A program made the position numbers and the translations under genes. A DNA stretch of 31,974 nt from Planctomycetota bacterium (GTDB lineage: Bacteria > Planctomycetota > GCA-002687715 > DRQF01): assembly GCA_027001995.1 (NCBI GenBank), contig JALTLO010000086.1:26224-58197 (forward strand). Direction: 5' to 3'. Below, piece by piece: positions 18,840 to 31,974 of the stretch (position 1 is the first letter of the stretch; each line of letters starts with the position of its first letter). The notes beneath the pieces were generated by a model. That model did no database searches, was not told where the DNA came from, and saw only the letters and a program-made list of their open reading frames with translations.

Positions 18840-21059
18840 TCACTTCAAACGATTGTTGAGGCTGCGTAAATGAGTTTCAAACTCCCTAAGACGGTCCGGG
18901 CTGATCTCCTTGTTGCCAAAGAATGCATCGCAGAAAATCTTGGCCACGTCCCGGAGGGGGTCTTGATGTTTGGCATAGTCGGTCGCCAAGCGTTTCGCAT
19001 GCTCGAAGGGGGTTTCTTCTGGTGCCCGTTGATTTCGCCAGCGGGATAGATGTTCTTGCCACTGAGCATAACGTGCAATCACGATTTCTCGTGGGGAGTC
19101 GGCGGTTTGAGCAGACAAGGGGGGCGTATTTCTAATCTGGGTGCCACGGGTGGTAATGGTTTCAGGTCTTGAGCCTCGACTTTTTCGCGGGGCCACTCGG
19201 GGGCGCTTGAGGAATGCGATGAAGAAAATAAGCCCAATAGAGCCAAACAAAACCATGATAGCACGGTCTTGGTTGTAGGCGTCTGACACCAAGCCGAACA
19301 AGCGAGAAACGCCTCTTTTCTTGTCGGAACTGCTTCGGGACTTGCTGTGTCCTTGAGCGCCGGTCTTTTTCGTTGTCGCTTCATTTTCTTGGCCCATGAC
19401 ACTGCGGTCATCGACGAATGCTGTGGCGTCATAAGGGAACCAACCTTGGCCTTCGATGTAGTATTCGGCCCATACATGAGCGCTTCCTTCGGTGATGATG
19501 TAGCGCTGTTGAGCACCATCCCAGGTGTGCCCCAAAAATCCCTTGGCCAAGCGGGCAGGCACGCCAGAAGCTCTGAGCAGGAGGCAAGCGGAGGTGGCAA
19601 AGTAGGTGCAGTCTCCAACACGGGAAGAAAGCAAGAAGTTCTTCAATTGGGTGTCGCCACGGCGTCGTCTCTCCGCCCAAGTTGTGGTGGTATCGTAGAT
19701 GAAATTCTTGGCGTAGAACAACTCCAGTTTTCTCAGTTTTACCCCCAAGGAATCTGCGTCGCTGAAGATACTGCTTGAGAGTTCTTTGAGGTCGAAGCCG
19801 ATGTTTTTTCGGTTGGGGAGTTCCGTGTGGAGATCTAAGGGGTGATCCCTTCTGGCTCCGATCCCTTTTCCTTTCCTGAGTGCATTTCGCGAGAGGCCCA
19901 GTTCAATTTTGTCACCTTCAATTTGAGAAGGCTTGTTTTCGGCGAAGAGCGCAACCTCACCACTCCAATTATGACCGATGGTGACATCTTTTGCTTCCGA
20001 TGTGAGGAGCTTGGCCGTGATTGCGTCGTAGCGAATGGGAAAAAGGGCGGTTTTGGGGGAAAGGCGCTCCATGACGTATTGGGTGTTAACAATCAATGAT
20101 GGTTCCCGCCGTATGAAGACGCGCTTATTGGATACTTCGAAACGAGTCTTTCGGGCCGTTTCCCAGGTTGATCCATCGTGACGAACTTTGTCGAGTATTT
20201 GGACGCGCCAAAGAGTGTTCTTGTTGGTTTTCGGCCGCAGTGGTGGTCGCAGCTCGATGCCCCTGCTGCGGGCTTGGAAGGCAAAAAGCGGCTCTAAACT
20301 TTTTCGAGCTTTTCCTAAGTCCGAGAGTTTGAACTCTGTGCTCCAACCGATCAACCGACTGGTATCGGCAGGGGGAGCGAGCTGTCCCCAGGCGCTATCT
20401 TTCTCACCCAATAAGGTCCGCGTAGTGGCTTCACCGCCGACGAAGACTATGATGGAGACCAAGAAGATGCCGATCATCATCTTGGCGCCATGCCACAGCT
20501 GAAGTTGAGGACGGGCGGTGTAGGCATGGATATCAAACAGCTGATGCCTGATGGGGGCTGCAAGGAAGAAAATGCTGACAAAAGTGAGGCCCCAAAAGAG
20601 GCCCCAGGGGCGTCCATCGACCAGCCCAATACTGAGTGCCCCGAAGGACAGGGCGTCATGGAGCCGATAGGTCTGCACCTGAAACAAGAAGAATGCCGAA
20701 GCCCAACTGGTGAGCAAGATGATGGCAACCTCTTGGCCCATTCCTAAATTTAGGTCAATGCCTGCGGATATATAGTTCCATCCCGTCGCACCCACGCCAA
20801 TGGCGAATCCGACAATGCTCAGGCAAATGACAAAACTCGTCGCTGAGCTCTTTGGCCATGGGCGGGAGCGAAAGAACCGGGCGACGGCCTGGGGAATCAT
20901 GGCCCAAAACGCAAGAATTGGCCCGTCGATCCAGGGGCTCTCCCAAGTGTTGATGGCGGACAAGAATAAGACCAAGGTGGCACTGAGAGCACAATCGCAG
21001 AGGAAAAGTCTCGTCTCTGCCCTACGAGCCCCAATGATTGTGGGACTTCCTTGCTTCAC
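18840..21059 (-). CDS. Membrane transglutaminase-like (TgpA-type) protein
   Basis: N-terminal TM helices and catalytic triad GDCTYFA / AHVWAE / YDAT. DUF4129-like C-terminus (ETPFE). GTG overlaps the DUF58 stop. Confidence 0.88.
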   Translation of the reverse strand: MKQGSPTIIGARRAETRLFLCDCALSATLVLFLSAINTWESPWIDGPILAFWAMIPQAVARFFRSRPWPKSSATSFVICLSIVGFAIGVGATGWNYISAGIDLNLGMGQEVAIILLTSWASAFFLFQVQTYRLHDALSFGALSIGLVDGRPWGLFWGLTFVSIFFLAAPIRHQLFDIHAYTARPQLQLWHGAKMMIGIFLVSIIVFVGGEATTRTLLGEKDSAWGQLAPPADTSRLIGWSTEFKLSDLGKARKSLEPLFAFQARSRGIELRPPLRPKTNKNTLWRVQILDKVRHDGSTWETARKTRFEVSNKRVFIRREPSLIVNTQYVMERLSPKTALFPIRYDAITAKLLTSEAKDVTIGHNWSGEVALFAENKPSQIEGDKIELGLSRNALRKGKGIGARRDHPLDLHTELPNRKNIGFDLKELSSSIFSDADSLGVKLRKLELFYAKNFIYDTTTTWAERRRRGDTQLKNFLLSSRVGDCTYFATSACLLLRASGVPARLAKGFLGHTWDGAQQRYIITEGSAHVWAEYYIEGQGWFPYDATAFVDDRSVMGQENEATTKKTGAQGHSKSRSSSDKKRGVSRLFGLVSDAYNQDRAIMVLFGSIGLIFFIAFLKRPRVAPRKSRGSRPETITTRGTQIRNTPPLSAQTADSPREIVIARYAQWQEHLSRWRNQRAPEETPFEHAKRLATDYAKHQDPLRDVAKIFCDAFFGNKEISPDRLREFETHLRSLNNRLK

Positions 21060-22273
21060 TTTTTTTTCTCCTCTTGGGGTTGGGGCCAACCGATCCAAAC
21101 GTGTTGAATCCCGTCGATGAGTCCACCAGGTGCTGGGGTGAGGACGGCTTCGTCACCGGGTGAGGGCAAAGCGGCAACGACGACATGGTGTCCCGCGTCT
21201 TGAAGACGATGCAGGATAGCGTTGGAACGCTCCCGATGCTCATGGTTGACAGTTGTGATGACGCAGATTTGAGAAGGGGGCTCTTGCTTCTCCAAAAGCG
21301 ATGTGAGAACGATCGGCAAAGTGAGGGAAGGGCTCAAACTTGCATCAGCCAATCTCTCCATCAAGATGAACATATGTTCGGTTGAGCGACCGATGGCCAA
21401 GTAATCGCTGCTTCTGTTTCCTGTTACCAGGGCAACAGATTCTCCGCAGCGGTTCGCCCGATGAGCTAATGAAGCAGCTAAGCGTGTTGATTGGTCTAGA
21501 ATGCCCACACCCACACCGGGTGCGTCAACGGACACGTTTCGATCCACAACAATGATCAGCCCACCTTCCGACTCGGCGAGAGTTTGGCGAACAACAAGAG
21601 TATCCCGACGGGCACTTTGCTTCCAGAGGATGCGTGAGCGAGGATCTCCGTGCCGGTATTCACGGACACTGAGGAATTCGTTGGACACACCCATGCGTCG
21701 ATGTTGTTCTGTGATGCCCAAGCGAGCTAACCCTGTGGCAAGAAGGAGGCTTCTTGGGATCTTGTGAATTCTCGGCAGGACAACGACTTCATTGTCGGTT
21801 TGTAAGAGTCTACGACATTCAAATAGGCCGAAAGGGTCGCTGATTCGAAGGAGAGCGGTACTGGCCCGGTATCGCCCCCGGTTGACTTCGCAACGAACTT
21901 CGTACTGACGCTCAGACGTCTTGCCAGGATCTAGGTCAGCGGAGAATAGGAGGCGTCTTCGGGTCGACGGAGCTACTGTGGGCCATTCGCTGAAGCGGGC
22001 ATGAACATGGGGGCGAAGAGTCTTGTTTTCAAGGGTCACGCGGACTTTGATCATGTCTCCTTCGAAGATGCGGTTGGGACACTTTTGGGTGAGGACGATT
22101 TCTTCCGCTGCCCGGCGGACGATATGATTGAGGTAGAGCGTGAGGCAGATGAGCATGGCACCGAAGGCCGCGGTTGATGGGGAGTCTTGTCGAATCCCAG
22201 CAAAGATGGAGATGCCGCCAATGATTGACAGGACCCAACCAGAACCACAACTTGGTGTAATGGCAGTGAGCAT
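21056..22273 (-). CDS. DUF58 domain-containing protein
   Basis: RG...DPFGLF and EFLSVREYRHGD...ILWKQSAR motifs, located downstream of MoxR. Confidence 0.9.
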   Translation of the reverse strand: MLTAITPSCGSGWVLSIIGGISIFAGIRQDSPSTAAFGAMLICLTLYLNHIVRRAAEEIVLTQKCPNRIFEGDMIKVRVTLENKTLRPHVHARFSEWPTVAPSTRRRLLFSADLDPGKTSERQYEVRCEVNRGRYRASTALLRISDPFGLFECRRLLQTDNEVVVLPRIHKIPRSLLLATGLARLGITEQHRRMGVSNEFLSVREYRHGDPRSRILWKQSARRDTLVVRQTLAESEGGLIIVVDRNVSVDAPGVGVGILDQSTRLAASLAHRANRCGESVALVTGNRSSDYLAIGRSTEHMFILMERLADASLSPSLTLPIVLTSLLEKQEPPSQICVITTVNHEHRERSNAILHRLQDAGHHVVVAALPSPGDEAVLTPAPGGLIDGIQHVWIGWPQPQEEKKK

Positions 22274-22280
22274 CTGAAAC

Positions 22281-23237
22281 TCAGTTGGAGAGTTCTTGAG
22301 AAGAAATAGGGACTGGGACGCTGCGAATGATTTCATCGATTATTTGTGCCATGGAACCTCCGGCGTATTCCAGCTTGGCGTCAGCGATGAGTCGATGGCC
22401 GAAAACGGAGGGAGCCACCTCTTTGATGTCGTCAGGGGACACGTAAGTCGCTCCTCGGAGATAGGCCCAAGCCTGGGCTGTTTTCATCAATGCGAGACTT
22501 CCTCGGGGGCTTAGACCCAGTCGGAGGTTGGCGTGGGATCGAGTTGCATGGGCCATAGCAACGATGTAAGTGCGAATCTCATTGGTCACTTTGACCCGCG
22601 ATGACAGTTCTTGGCAATGGCAAAGTTGTTCAGCGTTCATGACTGATTTGAGCTGGTCAATTGGTTCTGAAAGTTGGTGGCTTTCGAGGATGCGCTCTTC
22701 GCTGCGGGCATCAGGATAGCCCAAGTCGATGCACAGCAAGAAGCGATCCAGTTGGGCCTCCGGCAGAGGGTAAGTCCCTTGCAGCTCAATTGGGTTTTGT
22801 GTTGCCATGACAAAGAAGGGGGTGGGTAAAGAGCGGGTTTCTCCATCAATTGAAACTTGAGACTCTCCCATAGTTTCTAAGAGACTCGATTGAGTACGTG
22901 GGCTACTGCGGTTGATCTCGTCGGCCAAGAGAATGTTTGTGAACACGGGCCCTGGGACGAATTCGAATTTTCGCTCTCTTGGGTCATAGATAGAAACGCC
23001 GGTGATGTCATTTGGCAACAGGTCTGGAGTGAACTGAATTCTCTTGAAGCCCAGATCGAGAGACTGAGCTACGGCTCGCGCCAAGAGAGTCTTGCCAACT
23101 CCAGGGGCATCTTCGACCAGAAGGTGCCCTTGAGCCAAGAGGGCGGTGAGGGTCAGTTTGATAGCGCGTTTATGCCCGAAAAAGACGCTGGCAATGTTGT
23201 CTGCCAGCGCGTGCAATGCTTGTCGTGATTCTTCCAT
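22281..23237 (-). CDS. moxR: MoxR family AAA+ ATPase
   Basis: EDAPGVGKT, RIQFTPDLLP, LLADEINR and ATQNPIE...GTYPLPEAQLDRF. Confidence 0.95.
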   Translation of the reverse strand: MEESRQALHALADNIASVFFGHKRAIKLTLTALLAQGHLLVEDAPGVGKTLLARAVAQSLDLGFKRIQFTPDLLPNDITGVSIYDPRERKFEFVPGPVFTNILLADEINRSSPRTQSSLLETMGESQVSIDGETRSLPTPFFVMATQNPIELQGTYPLPEAQLDRFLLCIDLGYPDARSEERILESHQLSEPIDQLKSVMNAEQLCHCQELSSRVKVTNEIRTYIVAMAHATRSHANLRLGLSPRGSLALMKTAQAWAYLRGATYVSPDDIKEVAPSVFGHRLIADAKLEYAGGSMAQIIDEIIRSVPVPISSQELSN

Positions 23238-23297
23238 GTTTAACAGTCTAGGTATCCGAGGCCTTTGTGGCAAGAAACACTTGGAGTTCTCAGTCGT

Positions 23298-27972: not shown

Positions 27973-28665
27973 ATGAAAGCCTCTCAAAAACGAATGATCT
28001 TACTTCTGGCTGGCTCTTGGGGGTTGCGCTACGTGGGATTCGTCATCATGACTATCTTGGCGGTTTGGTGTGAGGCAAGGCCCGCCCCCCATCTCTCCGA
28101 CTCGATTCTCGAACAGGTGCCCTTTGTTTCATGGGTTTCCAGTTGGAATTATCATTTTTGGATTCTGGCCTGGGCACCACCCACGTTTTGGTTGATTGCA
28201 AAATGGCCGAAGCGGGCTTGTCGGCTTCTCTATGTGGGAGGCGTTTTGTCCGTTGTCCGAGGGCTTTGCATTTTTGCCACGGGCTTGGGCCCAGTGCGGG
28301 GGGAGGACATCAACGCGGGCATGAGTGCTGCAGCCCGTTGGGAGGGCATCAGTGCCATTGCCAACCCCTTTCACGCCTTGGCTGAAAATGCCGCTTTCGA
28401 ATACCTCACCAAGGACTTGTTCTTCTCAGGACACATCGCCACTACGTTCTTGGTCTTGCTCTATGTTTGGCCCCATAAGTTTACCAGATCATGGGCGTTG
28501 ATCGCCCACCTCTTGGTCTTGGTCAGCGTTTATCTCAGCCATCTTCACTACACCATCGACATCATCGGGGCCTACGCCATCACCTTCACCCTTTTTGTCC
28601 TCATGGAAAAGGACCCCCGAACTTCCACCATGAAAGACATGGGACCATCCTGGTCGGAAATATAG
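27973..28665 (+). CDS. PAP2-superfamily membrane protein, sphingomyelin/IPC synthase-like
   Basis: About 6 TM helices, DLFFSGH and HYTIDIIGA motifs. Confidence 0.75.
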   Translation: MKASQKRMILLLAGSWGLRYVGFVIMTILAVWCEARPAPHLSDSILEQVPFVSWVSSWNYHFWILAWAPPTFWLIAKWPKRACRLLYVGGVLSVVRGLCIFATGLGPVRGEDINAGMSAAARWEGISAIANPFHALAENAAFEYLTKDLFFSGHIATTFLVLLYVWPHKFTRSWALIAHLLVLVSVYLSHLHYTIDIIGAYAITFTLFVLMEKDPRTSTMKDMGPSWSEI

Positions 28666-28807
28666 CTCAAATCTTGCCAATGATTCTGAATCTAATTCGT
28701 TTTCGAGAGTGATTCGCACATCCAATCTTGGCAGCCCTCAACGCCCTTGACCGCGGCGCTCTTGCAAAAAGAATCGGAATCCAGAACAGTTGCTCCAATT
28801 TTCCAAT

Positions 28808-29100
28808 TCAGCTCGCAATCTTCATAGAATCTGGTCGACCCGCTGCCGACATCTTGTTCAAGATATTATAATCCAACATCGCCTCGGTTTCTTGCGTCCC
28901 GTTGCACCTTGATCGAAGCCTTCTACCGATGATCGTCTTGTACTTGAAGAACGTGTTCTCGACTTTCCTTTGACGATGGTAAGCGGCTCCTTTTTCCATG
29001 TCGTCGACCGACTTTCTTCACTCGCTGGACGGTCTTGTTGCTGTTCTTAGATCCGTTCTTGTTGACCCGCACTCCCTTGATTGGGGTAAGATTAATGGTG
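28808..29100 (-). pseudogene. IS5-family (IS903-like) transposase C-terminal remnant
   Basis: YHRQRKVENTFFKYKTIIGRRLRSR...Q.TE...ILNKM...GRPDS. The upstream part (NKTVQRVKKVGRR) is in another frame (frameshift near 29000) and the N-terminus is missing. Confidence 0.75.
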
Positions 29101-29155
29101 TGTCGCAGAATCAAGAGTCAGCATGCCAATTCATGGCAACAAAATGGCAATTGAC

Positions 29156-29194
29156 AAAAGAAGGGCCGCCTCACCAAATGTGAAACAGCCCTTC
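29156..29194 (-). terminator. Rho-independent terminator downstream of the tRNA-Arg pair
   Basis: On the minus strand: GAAGGGCTGTTTCAC-ATTTG-GTGAGGCGGCCCTTC followed by TTTT. Confidence 0.7.
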
Positions 29195-29221
29195 AAGAGT
29201 TTCAGCTTATTGTGCTTAGGG

Positions 29222-29243
29222 AAGTACGCCCAGCAGGACTTGA
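29222..29243 (-). repeat. 22-bp direct repeat of the tRNA-Arg(TCT) 3' end (att-like)
   Basis: AAGTACGCCCAGCAGGACTTGA at 29222-29243 is identical to 29420-29441. Confidence 0.85.
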
Positions 29244-29422
29244 CCTAAGCTTCCGAGCCTTGGCGAGGTCGCGTGGCATCGGAGCATCCCAATGATGGTC
29301 ATCCGAGTTTTCGTGTCGTCATGCCGCCATCATGTCGCCCTTTTCATGGAAGGCATTGGCGGAGATAACAACGTGTAGGGAGGTGGCCAAAATGGCAGCC
29401 CGTGGACCAAGAGAAACTAAAG

Positions 29423-29496
29423 TACGCCCAGCAGGACTTGAACCTGCGACCTACGGATTAGAAATCCGTTGCTCTATCCGGCTGAGCTATGGGCGC
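29423..29496 (-). tRNA. tRNA-Arg(TCT)
   Basis: GCGCCCA/TGGGCGT acceptor, ACGGA-TTTCTAA-TCCGT anticodon arm and GGTTCAAGTCC T arm. CCA not encoded. Confidence 0.95.
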
Positions 29497-29528
29497 TTGT
29501 GCCCTGTGGCTCTCACGAGGGCTTTAAG

Positions 29529-29601
29529 TACTCCTGTCGCGACTCGAACGCGAAATTCCGGCTTCGGAGGCCAGCGGTTTATCCAATTAGCCTACAGGAG
29601 C
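29529..29601 (-). tRNA. tRNA-Arg(CCG)
   Basis: GCTCCTG/CAGGAGT acceptor, CTGGC-CTCCGAA-GCCGG anticodon arm and TCGCG-TTCGAGT-CGCGA T arm. Confidence 0.92.
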
Positions 29602-29645
29602 AAATAGGCCCCGCACAGAGGCGGGGCCTTTCATCTGCGTTGCGC

Positions 29646-29673
29646 ATTGTATTGCGCTCAAACTGAAGCTCAA
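29646..29673 (-). promoter_or_regulatory. Candidate sigma70 promoter for the tRNA-Arg pair
   Basis: TTGAGC-N16-TACAAT on the minus strand, about 45 nt upstream of tRNA-Arg(CCG). Confidence 0.45.
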
Positions 29674-29707
29674 GACTTACGGTGAAGCTTGGCAACAATT
29701 TGCAATC

Positions 29708-29923
29708 CTATAGGTCGTGGGCACGAACTGTAGAACGCTTGTTGCTGTCTGCACGGTTGCAGGCAGAATCGAGCAATTCATGAACTTTTTCATTGAGAGC
29801 TTCGAGAAGCTCGCCCGAAGTCATGCAGCCGTTGCCCTTGATGACACCCTTGACCTTGGAACCGACGATAAGTGTGTCCAGGCTCTTTTTCTTAGCAGCC
29901 TTCTTTTTGGCCTTTTTTGCCAT
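29708..29923 (-). CDS. Bacterial histone-fold protein with a Lys-rich N-terminal tail
   Basis: LIVGSKVK...TSGELLEALNEKVHELL..A..RA..NKRSTVRAHDL, which contains the RxTxxxxD histone motif and resembles Bdellovibrio Bd0055. TAAGGA RBS 9 nt upstream. Confidence 0.88.
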   Translation of the reverse strand: MAKKAKKKAAKKKSLDTLIVGSKVKGVIKGNGCMTSGELLEALNEKVHELLDSACNRADSNKRSTVRAHDL

Positions 29924-30261
29924 GTGTGTTGATCCTTATTCTTGAATCCAAAACAAGTTGAAACTCGTCCTGAGCAGGGTGAAACCCGTTTCTCACCCGA
30001 ATTGCTCGAAATCCTACGTCACCGGGACGACATGGCAAGGCGTAAAACCGCGATTCAGTGCCAAAATCGGCGTTTATGGCCGGATTTGTCGTGTTTATTT
30101 CTCAAAAACGCCGCGAATCGTCGAAATGTGGCGTTTTTCGGTGATGGCTTGGTCGCGTTAACGCAATTGGCCAGGGTGGTGAAAGTGCGTCGTAACAGTC
30201 GCAAGAGAGGAGAGAATAGGGAGATAAAGCGAATGGATTTTTGAGAAGGAAAAGCTTGGCC

Positions 30262-30290
30262 TTGATGGATCTCTTGTGCTTTCATATCTT
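30262..30290 (+). promoter_or_regulatory. Candidate sigma70 promoter for tRNA-His/tRNA-Lys
   Basis: TTGATG-N17-TATCTT, about 50 nt upstream of tRNA-His. Confidence 0.5.
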
Positions 30291-30342
30291 GGCGCGCTCA
30301 GGGGTTTCGGCCCTGGAGTTGTGCTTGTGAAAGCGAGCATAT

Positions 30343-30417
30343 GGAGGGCATAGCTCAGTTGGTTAGAGCGCCGGTTTGTGGTTCCGGAGGTCGGGGGTTC
30401 GATTCCCCTTGCCCTCC
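30343..30417 (+). tRNA. tRNA-His(GTG)
   Basis: G-1 plus GAGGGCA/TGCCCTC acceptor, C discriminator, anticodon loop TTGTGGT and GGTTCGATTCC T arm. Confidence 0.95.
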
Positions 30418-30454
30418 CTCCATTTTTGATCGTGGGAGAAACATTTCTCCTTTT

Positions 30455-30527
30455 GCTCGCGTAGCTCAGTAGGCAGAGCAGCTGATTCTTAATCAGCGGG
30501 TCCCAGGTTCGATCCCTGGCGCGAGCA
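30455..30527 (+). tRNA. tRNA-Lys(CTT)
   Basis: GCTCGCG/CGCGAGC acceptor, GCTGA-TTCTTAA-TCAGC anticodon arm and GGTTCGATCCC T arm. Confidence 0.95.
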
Positions 30528-30531
30528 CTCC

Positions 30532-30557
30532 ACCCGTCATCCCATGGCGGGTTTTTT
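30532..30557 (+). terminator. Rho-independent terminator after tRNA-Lys
   Basis: ACCCGTCAT-CCC-ATGGCGGGT followed by TTTTT. Confidence 0.75.
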
Positions 30558-30720
30558 CGTGCCAAGGTTATCGTGAAAATTGGGTGTGGGATCGAGCCGG
30601 GGACTTCGGGGAGCTTGGGCTCGAAGTTGTCGTGTGCGTGCGCTTGGGTTGGGCTTGGACCGTATGAGGGAAAAGTGGCGCGTTTTCTTCTTGGTGCGCG
30701 TGGATCCGTAGTCTCGCTGC

Positions 30721-30801
30721 GGGAGCAGTGGCCTCTGGCCGCTTCCTCTTGTTTTCGTTTTTTGGAGGAAGACCAAGAAGCGGCGGGACGCCACTGCTCC
30801 C
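30721..30801. repeat. REP doublet (REPIN-like) downstream of the RAYT gene
   Basis: GGGAGCAGTGGCCTCTGGCCGCTTC and inverted GAAGCGGCGGGACGCCACTGCTCCC, separated by a ~31-bp spacer. Confidence 0.85.
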
Positions 30802-30814
30802 GGGAAGAGAGCGG

Positions 30815-31369
30815 TTACTTTTTCCAAGCACTTGAGAATCTCCAATCAGCAGCTGTTGCGCAAAGCCCAGCCTTGACTGGATTCTCCTCGATGTAATTGA
30901 GCGCGCTGGAGAAATGCTCTTCATTTCGTATGTATCGATCAAAGTAGTCGGCGTGCCAAACTGCTCCTGATTGCCCTAGCGTCTTGTTGATCTTATGTGC
31001 GGAATAACTCTTCCAACTGTGAATGGCTTTCCAAAGTGTGATCTCGGGTCTGAGAGTCAGCAGGACATGAACATGGTTTGGCATTACAACCCAAGCATGA
31101 ACCCAATAGCGAATCTCATGGAAGTGGAGGATCGAATTCGCAACAACATGAGCAAGATTCGTTTTTCTTAGGATACAGCGCCCGGCGCCCTGATCGAGAA
31201 GTTTCTCGACGCCCTCCATGTCTTTCGACAATATGGAAAGCGTTTTCTTGGGATGGCTGTCGATCAACCCGAAGGTGACCATTTGGGAGACGCCATAAGC
31301 ATCACAATGAGGCAAGCGTTTTTCGTCTCGTCTGAGTTCTTGATTCGATCTCATAAAGATTGGATCCAC
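30815..31369 (-). mobile_element. REP-associated tyrosine transposase (RAYT, HUH/Y1)
   Basis: LPH, VTF, WVVMPNHVHVLL (HUH), WKSYSA, WHADYFDRYIR, YIEENPVKAGL (catalytic Tyr) and WRFSS. AGGAG RBS before GTG. Confidence 0.92.
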
Positions 31370-31562
31370 AGAATTCTCCTTTCATGTATTACTTGACGAG
31401 AACGTGGATGATCGTGGACCTAAGAATTTGAGATTTTCCAATTGCCTACACAGGGTGAAGTCTCGTGAATCCTTGGGATTGGGGAGAGTGGCTGTTGATC
31501 GTCGCGAGGAACGTGCACTGGGGGGACTTCTTACCTTTTCATGGATTTTGGGCGAGTGCGAA

Positions 31563-31974
31563 GAAGCGGCGGGACGCCACTGCTCCCGGGAAGAGTAGGT
31601 TTTTTGCTCCGCTGGGAGCAGTGGCCTCTGGCCGCTTCCTCTTGTTTTCGTTTTTTGGAGGAAGACCAAGAAGCGGCGGGACGCCACTGCTCCTGGGTGA
31701 GTAGGTTTCTTGCTCCGCGGGGAGCATTGGCCTCTGGCCGCTTCTTCTTGTTTTCGTTTTTTGGAGGAAGACCAAGAAGCGGCGGGACGCCACTGCTCCC
31801 GGGAAGAATTGGTTTTTTGCTCCGCTGGGAGCATTGGGCTTTGGCCGCTTCTTCTTGTTTTCGTTTCTTGGAGAAAGACGAAGAAGCGGCGGGACGCCAC
31901 TGCTCCCGGGAAGAATTGGTTTTTTGCTCCGCGGGGAGCATTGGCCTCTGGCCGCTTCTTCTTGTTTTCGTTTT
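31563..31974. repeat. Tandem array of REP doublets (~107-bp period, BIME-like), running off the window
   Basis: GGGAGCA-starting units at 31614, 31720, 31827 and 31934, plus a lone inverted REP at 31563-31587. Spacers are near-identical. Confidence 0.9.

Follow-up and report, generated by a model that had tools for sequence, protein, structure and literature searches.

Among the bacterial histones, the face-to-face (FtF) type has been set apart by Schwab et al. 2024 (PMC11390915) from the 'bacterial dimers' such as HBb, and is reported there mainly from Spirochaetota, Planctomycetota, Bdellovibrionota and Myxococcota. In the FtF histones described in that paper, an Arg and an Asn (R41 and N45 in the Haloferax reference) make the dimer-dimer contact and stand before the motif R47-x-T49-x4-D54, and the chain stops one residue past the Asp. 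The bacterial dimers have R-K-T in loop L2, and the HBb-type and FtF histones are both placed by these authors in the alpha3 family. Tails, mostly positive, are described as common on bacterial FtF histones, while archaeal FtF histones are generally without them. The FtF histone HLp of Leptospira perolatii (PDB 9QT0-9QT2; PMC12701072) is reported to form a stable tetramer which wraps ~60 bp of DNA, protects 35-72 bp from MNase and reorganises the nucleoid of E. coli; histones are found, according to the same source, in fewer than 2% of bacterial genomes. HTkC of Thermococcus kodakarensis (PDB 9F2C) belongs to the same subgroup and shares the fold of the histone described below, from which it differs in being archaeal and without a tail. 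R45 of HTkC, the Arg equivalent to R57, is needed for its tetramer behaviour, the mutant being described in the preprint 10.64898/2025.12.06.692711 as a dimer-like DNA bender instead of a tetramer. The literature search found no experiment on the function of the basic tails of bacterial FtF histones.

The window analysed here, a stretch of 31,974 nucleotides from a Planctomycetota assembly, carries on its minus strand a histone gene (29708..29923) of 71 codons plus stop with an ATG start, recognized as an ORF and by homology. Codons 1-14 (29882..29923, minus) encode a lysine-rich N-terminal tail predicted to be disordered, consisting of Met and 13 residues of which 8 are Lys, and residues 15-71 (29711..29881, minus) make up an alpha3-truncated histone fold that carries R57, N61, R63, T65 and D70. 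A Shine-Dalgarno-like AAGGA (29933..29937, minus) lies 9 nt 5' of the ATG. The earlier note on this DNA had described a protein of 71 residues with a good ribosome-binding site and 8 Lys in 13 residues, and these statements hold, the lysines falling in residues 2-14; the strand, which is minus, was absent from it. The gene is the single histone copy in the assembly (5.2 Mb, 204 contigs, 92% complete). An in-frame stop is present 5 codons upstream of the ATG, which is the only ATG, GTG or TTG between this stop and the conserved VGSKVK core; the relative L008 likewise has a single possible start before that core. As only one start is possible, the histone cannot begin downstream of the tail, and the doubt that the earlier note had raised on this point is thereby removed. 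The match to HLp (E 1.6e-15), together with 246 homologues at E<=1e-3 and 366 related representative clusters from an unindexed search, shows that the ORF is not a chance frame. RNA libraries gave matches only to tRNA-like words and to contigs of a ~88% alike relative, covering 29772-29911, and are uninformative on the transcription of the window itself.

Comparison with solved structures has been made at the level of both sequence and model. In phmmer searches against PDB, HLp (9QT0) was followed by Bd0055/HBb at E ~8e-4 and by HTkC at 0.18, and a profile of 150 homologues gave 8.8e-27 for HLp, 7.5e-14 for HBb and 2.5e-13 for HTkC. The AlphaFold2 model of the histone (pLDDT 79.7) displays alpha1 at 21-30, alpha2 at 39-60 and a one-turn alpha3 at 68-70. 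Foldseek with this model retrieved 9qt0_A first (TM 0.96 by target, rmsd 0.7 Å, 57% identity), followed by HBb with 35-36% identity and rmsd 1.1 Å, and HTkC with 32% and rmsd 1.2 Å. As modelled, the core is an alpha3-truncated prokaryotic histone fold, a form defined by an alpha3 of just 3-4 residues and a shortened alpha2. A histone fold with HLp on top is thus what the fold prediction proposed in the earlier note returned, and its view of the core as related to Bd0055 and, more closely, to the face-to-face histones is borne out by phmmer, Foldseek and profile alike. The Pfam histone models all remained under their cut-offs for this protein (PF00125, 15.0 bits vs 26.4; PF09123 (DUF1931), 14.5 vs 21.8; PF00808, 13.2 vs 21.4). 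These models are poor for the FtF subgroup, and DUF1931 is also the label under which HLp appears in PDB.

The assignment to the FtF subgroup follows from the residues at the end of the chain. The C-terminal part reads R63-S-T65-V-R-A-H-D70-L71 and matches the RxTxxxxD motif to which the earlier note had drawn attention, L71 being the last residue. Together with R57 and N61, the spacing R-x3-N-x-R-x-T-x4-D-x(end) is the same as in the Haloferax FtF reference. On sequence, the chain has the RxTxxxxD motif, which comprises the RD clamp and the DNA-binding Thr, as well as the Arg-Asn pair of the interface and an end one residue past the Asp. Among the 150 homologues R57 and D70 are invariant, while each of N61, R63 and T65 is conserved in at least 90% of the sequences, and most of the 120 homologues listed also stop one residue after D70. 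The columns of R57 and N61 hold Arg and Asn in HLp and Ser and Asp in HBb in the profile alignment. The features of the HBb/Bd0055 type of bacterial dimer were not found in the window histone, which has both R57 and N61, and R-S-T in place of R-K-T in L2.

Prediction of a four-copy complex gave a score of 0.87, against 0.01 for the best of 3 controls, a result which the solved relatives may drive. In the calibration of the mark used, it was attained by 20 of 30 solved one-chain pairs and 1 of 23 solved single chains; the present run differs from this calibration in its four copies and its own alignment, and tetramers of HLp and HTkC have already been solved. Between runs, at least 94% of the contacts recur, and the pLDDT of the partner chains is at least 82. 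In the predicted complex, the scored chain contacts its handshake mate over residues 16-71 and touches one chain of the other dimer via residues 56-57, 60-61, 63, 67 and 69-70. Since complexes of the HLp and HTkC kind have been solved, the predicted tetramer may derive from them, and it indicates likeness, not binding.

The window histone is therefore like HLp in fold, and it shares with HLp the R/N/R-x-T/D signature, the C-terminal end and the predicted dimer-dimer contact elements. It differs from HLp in phylum and in its N-terminus, which in HLp has 7 residues with one Lys, short and uncharged, and here has 14 residues with 8 Lys. With HBb from Bdellovibrio bacteriovorus (PDB 8CMP, 8FVX; PMC10627809, PMC11317129) it shares the alpha3-truncated fold, the conserved alpha1 lysines and the RD clamp, whereas HBb is without the tetramer-interface Arg and Asn, has R-K-T, is a dimer and has no lysine-rich tail; the statement of the earlier note that Bd0055 has no such tail is confirmed in the alignment. 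From the tailed bacterial FtF histones of Schwab et al. (PMC11390915) the window histone shows no difference in kind, being of the same category and phylum as described there. It is a further member of a described class, in which positively charged tails have already been reported for Planctomycetota, and the novelty implied in the earlier note does not stand against that report.

The tail has been followed among relatives at several distances. In the AlphaFold2 model its residues 1-12 have pLDDT <50, and it is absent from every interface of the four-copy prediction. The seven family genes (window plus six relatives) are 216, 219 or 222 nt long and thus differ by whole codons, and at shared Lys positions some of them use AAA where others use AAG. 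The same tail of 14 residues is found in cluster P0002, which is 94% identical overall, and a tail with one extra Ala in P0001, the closest cluster. The survey of tail conservation proposed in the earlier note has an affirmative outcome, as in the best 120 of the 246 clusters a tail of at least 8 residues is found in 101, with a net charge of at least +3 in 99 of these 101; for the same closest 120 clusters the median K+R fraction is 0.50, and the protein begins M-A/G-K/R in 104. In the wider set of 50%-identity representatives, at least 8 residues precede the fold in 63 of 73 single-fold proteins and the net charge is at least +3 in 43 of the 63, a count that left out 49 of 148 new proteins, in which the anchor pattern was unmatched, and 26 with a second fold or a long C-terminal part, and in which some of the long 'tails' are signal-peptide-like or doubtful gene starts. 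Relatives from Ca. Scalindua, with a core identity of 43-46%, still have a MAKKAKKK start and a TAAGGAG site upstream. At 21 further loci of the phylum, where the starts were chosen by us as Shine-Dalgarno-backed and locus L038, without an anchored ORF, was left out, a basic tail of 9-29 residues occurs in 11 and an 11-residue non-basic tail in 1, and 9 have at most 8 residues before the core, four of these a single residue. The sequence of the tail and its Lys positions drift freely among relatives. As judged from the coding sequences compared, the tail is translated and is kept by selection for composition, not for sequence. The basic tail is a family trait, though not universal in the phylum.

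Tails of this kind have counterparts outside the FtF histones. The N-terminal tails of eukaryotic and Asgard archaeal nucleosomal histones are disordered, basic and placed before the fold, as is the tail of the window histone; they stand on nucleosomal histones with a full alpha3, whereas the window tail is short and of K/A composition. The description 'eukaryote-like' in the earlier note is right in so far as the tail is real, lysine-rich and N-terminal; the likeness is one of charge only, and a low-complexity K/A tail allows no homology test. The 14-residue K/A-rich tail presumably resembles the K/A repeats of linker histones or of HupB more than the tails of H3 and H4. The actinobacterial HU proteins (HupB/MDP1, HupS) have, like the window histone, a disordered K/A-rich extension on a small nucleoid protein, and this 'eukaryotic-like tail' is reported to be needed for function and to be a target of modification (PMC5676037, PMC5974015, PMC5931751, PMC11229371). 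The HU fold is unrelated and the HU tails are C-terminal and much longer, so the likeness is analogy and not homology. Two HU/IHF-family genes are present in the genome of the window besides the histone; the proteins have no lysine tails, and their extensions are not basic.

The named relatives come from Planctomycetota MAGs and, more distantly, from Ca. Scalindua and Ca. Brocadiia. A search with the protein alone gave a match in 12 of 41 related genomes, that of the window included, and, within the family, in 6 of the 8 genomes besides that of the window. In the genus, the two further genomes (G001 and G002, 83% and 89% complete) were negative with both protein and profile; the histone gene adjoins tRNA genes and a repeat array, regions which often fail to assemble, so absence from the genus is not shown by this result. 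At E<=1e-5 the profile had matches in 184 of the 401 genomes sampled from the phylum and, counting only those of high quality, in 122 of 243, though the weaker matches among the 184 may include HBb-like forms. This occurrence in the family and in the phylum makes histone-based chromatin in the lineage plausible, as far as gene content can indicate it. The frequency of 184 in 401 greatly exceeds the figure given in PMC12701072 (fewer than 2% of bacterial genomes), which suggests Planctomycetota as a suitable phylum for work on bacterial histone chromatin.

The histone gene is set among tRNA genes. Directly downstream and co-directional with it are tRNA-Arg(CCG) (29528-29601, minus) and then tRNA-Arg(TCT) (29422-29496, minus), while tRNA-His(GTG) (30344-30418, plus) and tRNA-Lys(CTT) (30455-30528, plus) lie upstream and are divergent. 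All 6 other family loci compared show exactly this order of tRNA and histone genes (29422-30528), and in a locus from the same taxonomic order one tRNA-Arg is left beside the histone. These neighbours are absent from 4 of 4 more distant loci of the phylum and from 9 of 9 loci of Ca. Scalindua and allied MAGs. A promoter-like TTGCCA-16 nt-TAGGAT (30011..30038, minus), noted by its match to the consensus and by its conservation, is situated 88 nt upstream of the ATG; all 7 family loci have the same TAGGAT, and 6 of them also retain the TTG with which the first hexamer begins. This conserved promoter-like site and the tRNA setting would fit strong constitutive expression. Between the histone stop and tRNA-Arg(CCG) lies a G+C-rich, terminator-like hairpin with a short T run (29607..29628, minus; scan hit 29622-29608), with a hairpin at a like place in the alignment of relatives. 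A second promoter-like site (29673-29646) was also observed between the histone stop and the first tRNA-Arg, and with this site and the hairpin before the tRNA-Arg, the histone may or may not be co-transcribed with the tRNA-Arg genes. In the region 29924-30038 (minus), the promoter-like TTGCCA/TAGGAT is followed by a conserved GGG-R-G-GAAA...GGTT sequence able to fold into a 5'-proximal hairpin. A conserved hairpin of the 5'-UTR was considered and set aside as too weak, RNAalifold giving 7 pairs with 1 compensatory change over 7 sequences, two pairs of which are near-identical. The Rfam scan over 28000-31974 returned the four tRNAs and sub-threshold noise only.

Taken as a whole, the explanation that we regard as highly probable is that of an HLp-like FtF wrapping tetramer to which basic tails add DNA contact. 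By comparison with HLp, two handshake dimers would join via the end of alpha2, loop L2 and the one-turn alpha3 to form a closed tetramer, the joint being made by R57, N61, R63 and the C-terminal carboxylate bridging to the opposing dimer. Such a tetramer would, as HLp does, bind DNA without sequence preference and wrap roughly 60 bp. The disordered 14-residue tail with its 8 Lys would leave the fold at the start of alpha1, beside the path of the DNA, and the four tails of a tetramer would bring about +32 charges. The most likely role of the tail, we infer, is extra neutralisation of phosphates leading to tighter or longer DNA contact; by analogy with the lysine-rich tails of actinobacterial HU, the tails may possibly also contact a second duplex (bridging). 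As HLp wraps DNA without a lysine-rich tail, the tail would be unnecessary for the basic mechanism, and its role is a matter of pure inference. The histone need not be the main chromatin protein either, as the genome keeps its two HU/IHF-family genes. If this reading is true, the window histone is one more uncultured example of a catalogued class and changes little alone. It offers a clean test case for tails, HLp, the sole functionally characterised FtF histone, being without a lysine-rich one.

Other explanations have been weighed against this one. That the protein is a 'bacterial dimer' like HBb/Bd0055, which bends or coats DNA as a dimer and forms no wrapping tetramer, has in its favour the detectable homology to HBb, the placing of both types in the alpha3 family (as described in PMC11390915) and the fact that the tetramer is here a prediction; yet the match to HLp is far stronger than that to HBb, the conserved R57 and N61 face Ser and Asp in HBb, L2 differs from R-K-T, and the predicted dimer-dimer contact uses exactly the R57, N61 and L2 residues, which together make a dimer of this type decidedly unlikely. 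Hardly credible is the view that the tail is an annotation artefact of a downstream start, or that the histone ORF is unexpressed, when no alternative start codon exists, the Shine-Dalgarno site is at the right distance, the M-A/G-K/R start recurs in the closest clusters and conservation is seen at the level of the codons. That the protein works mainly elsewhere than in chromatin, for instance as a small basic partner of RNA or ribosomes, might be suggested by the fixed position of the gene inside a tRNA cluster in the window and in the other loci of its family, and K/A-rich termini are common among RNA-binding proteins. Such a role is nevertheless very unlikely, as the DNA-contacting residues of HLp, HBb and HTkC (S-K-V-K in alpha1, K/R-x-T in L2) are among the most conserved columns, the tRNA neighbourhood is limited to the close family, and the association with tRNA genes is more simply read as an indication that expression is strong and tied to growth.

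The remaining alternative is compatible with the wrapping tetramer and concerns the tail, which would serve chiefly as a platform for regulated lysine acetylation or methylation that switches the state of the chromatin. It draws on the 8 exposed Lys in a predicted disordered tail, on reports that the tailed HU proteins of actinobacteria are modified at lysines (PMC5931751, PMC11229371), and on the presence in the same genome of an HDAC-family gene and of a gene for a 182-aa SET-domain protein (contig C141; L030:1300-1848, minus) which at 28.9 bits is above the cut-off of Pfam PF00856. SET genes occur in 13 of the 41 related genomes, against 1 of 14 control genomes. Their distribution does not follow that of the histone, however, since among these 41 genomes both are found in 4 (3.8 expected by chance), the histone only in 8, SET only in 9 and neither in 20. 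With the two genes thus independent, the SET-domain link was dropped as support for methylation of the tail, and the HDAC-family gene was set aside as uninformative, such genes being present in 9 of 14 control genomes. The drift of tail sequence and Lys positions also fits selection for charge better than it fits site-specific marks, and a tail serving mainly as a modification platform is accordingly considered unlikely; on eukaryote-like regulation the earlier note goes too far. A small chance is likewise given to the broader proposal that the tail is a second DNA-binding mode, bridging or condensing DNA between wrapped tetramers and tuned by reversible lysine acetylation, as part of a regulated histone chromatin alongside HU in a phylum of which about half the sampled genomes have the histone.

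Some histone-fold relatives carry other N-terminal parts. P0122, P0126, P0129 and P0187 have a hydrophobic, signal-peptide-like start, and in P0155 and P0230 such a start is combined with an RRM-like part (KxLFVGNLP...) before the histone fold. The signal-peptide-like relatives, singlets and doublets, have a conserved A-A-R-S/A-S-K/R-P motif after the hydrophobic segment and keep VGSKVK and R-x-T-V-R-P-x-D; neither 'signal peptide' nor 'RRM' occurs in the main text of PMC11390915. On a 3-kb contig of a MAG labelled Ilumatobacter (L016:1192-1689), a histone frame 81% identical to that of the window, with two tRNA-Arg genes behind it, continues upstream through a lysine-rich stretch into unrelated N-terminal sequence. 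This contig looks mis-binned or chimeric, joined at the low-complexity AAG-rich region of the tail.

Elsewhere in the window, the part 30568-31974 contains an IS200-like Y1 transposase ORF (30815-31369, minus; PF01797, 37.3 bits), flanked on both sides by copies of a ~107-nt repeat unit with an imperfect palindrome. At least 3.9 tandem copies lie at 31561-31974, running off the end of the window, and one diverged copy is at 30653-30804. The transposase and its repeat array look like a REP-associated tyrosine transposase with its repeats. An operon-like row unrelated to the histone (18840-23273, minus) comprises a MoxR-type AAA ATPase (22281-23273), a DUF58 protein (21056-22336) and a transglutaminase-like/DUF4129 protein (18840-21098, minus).
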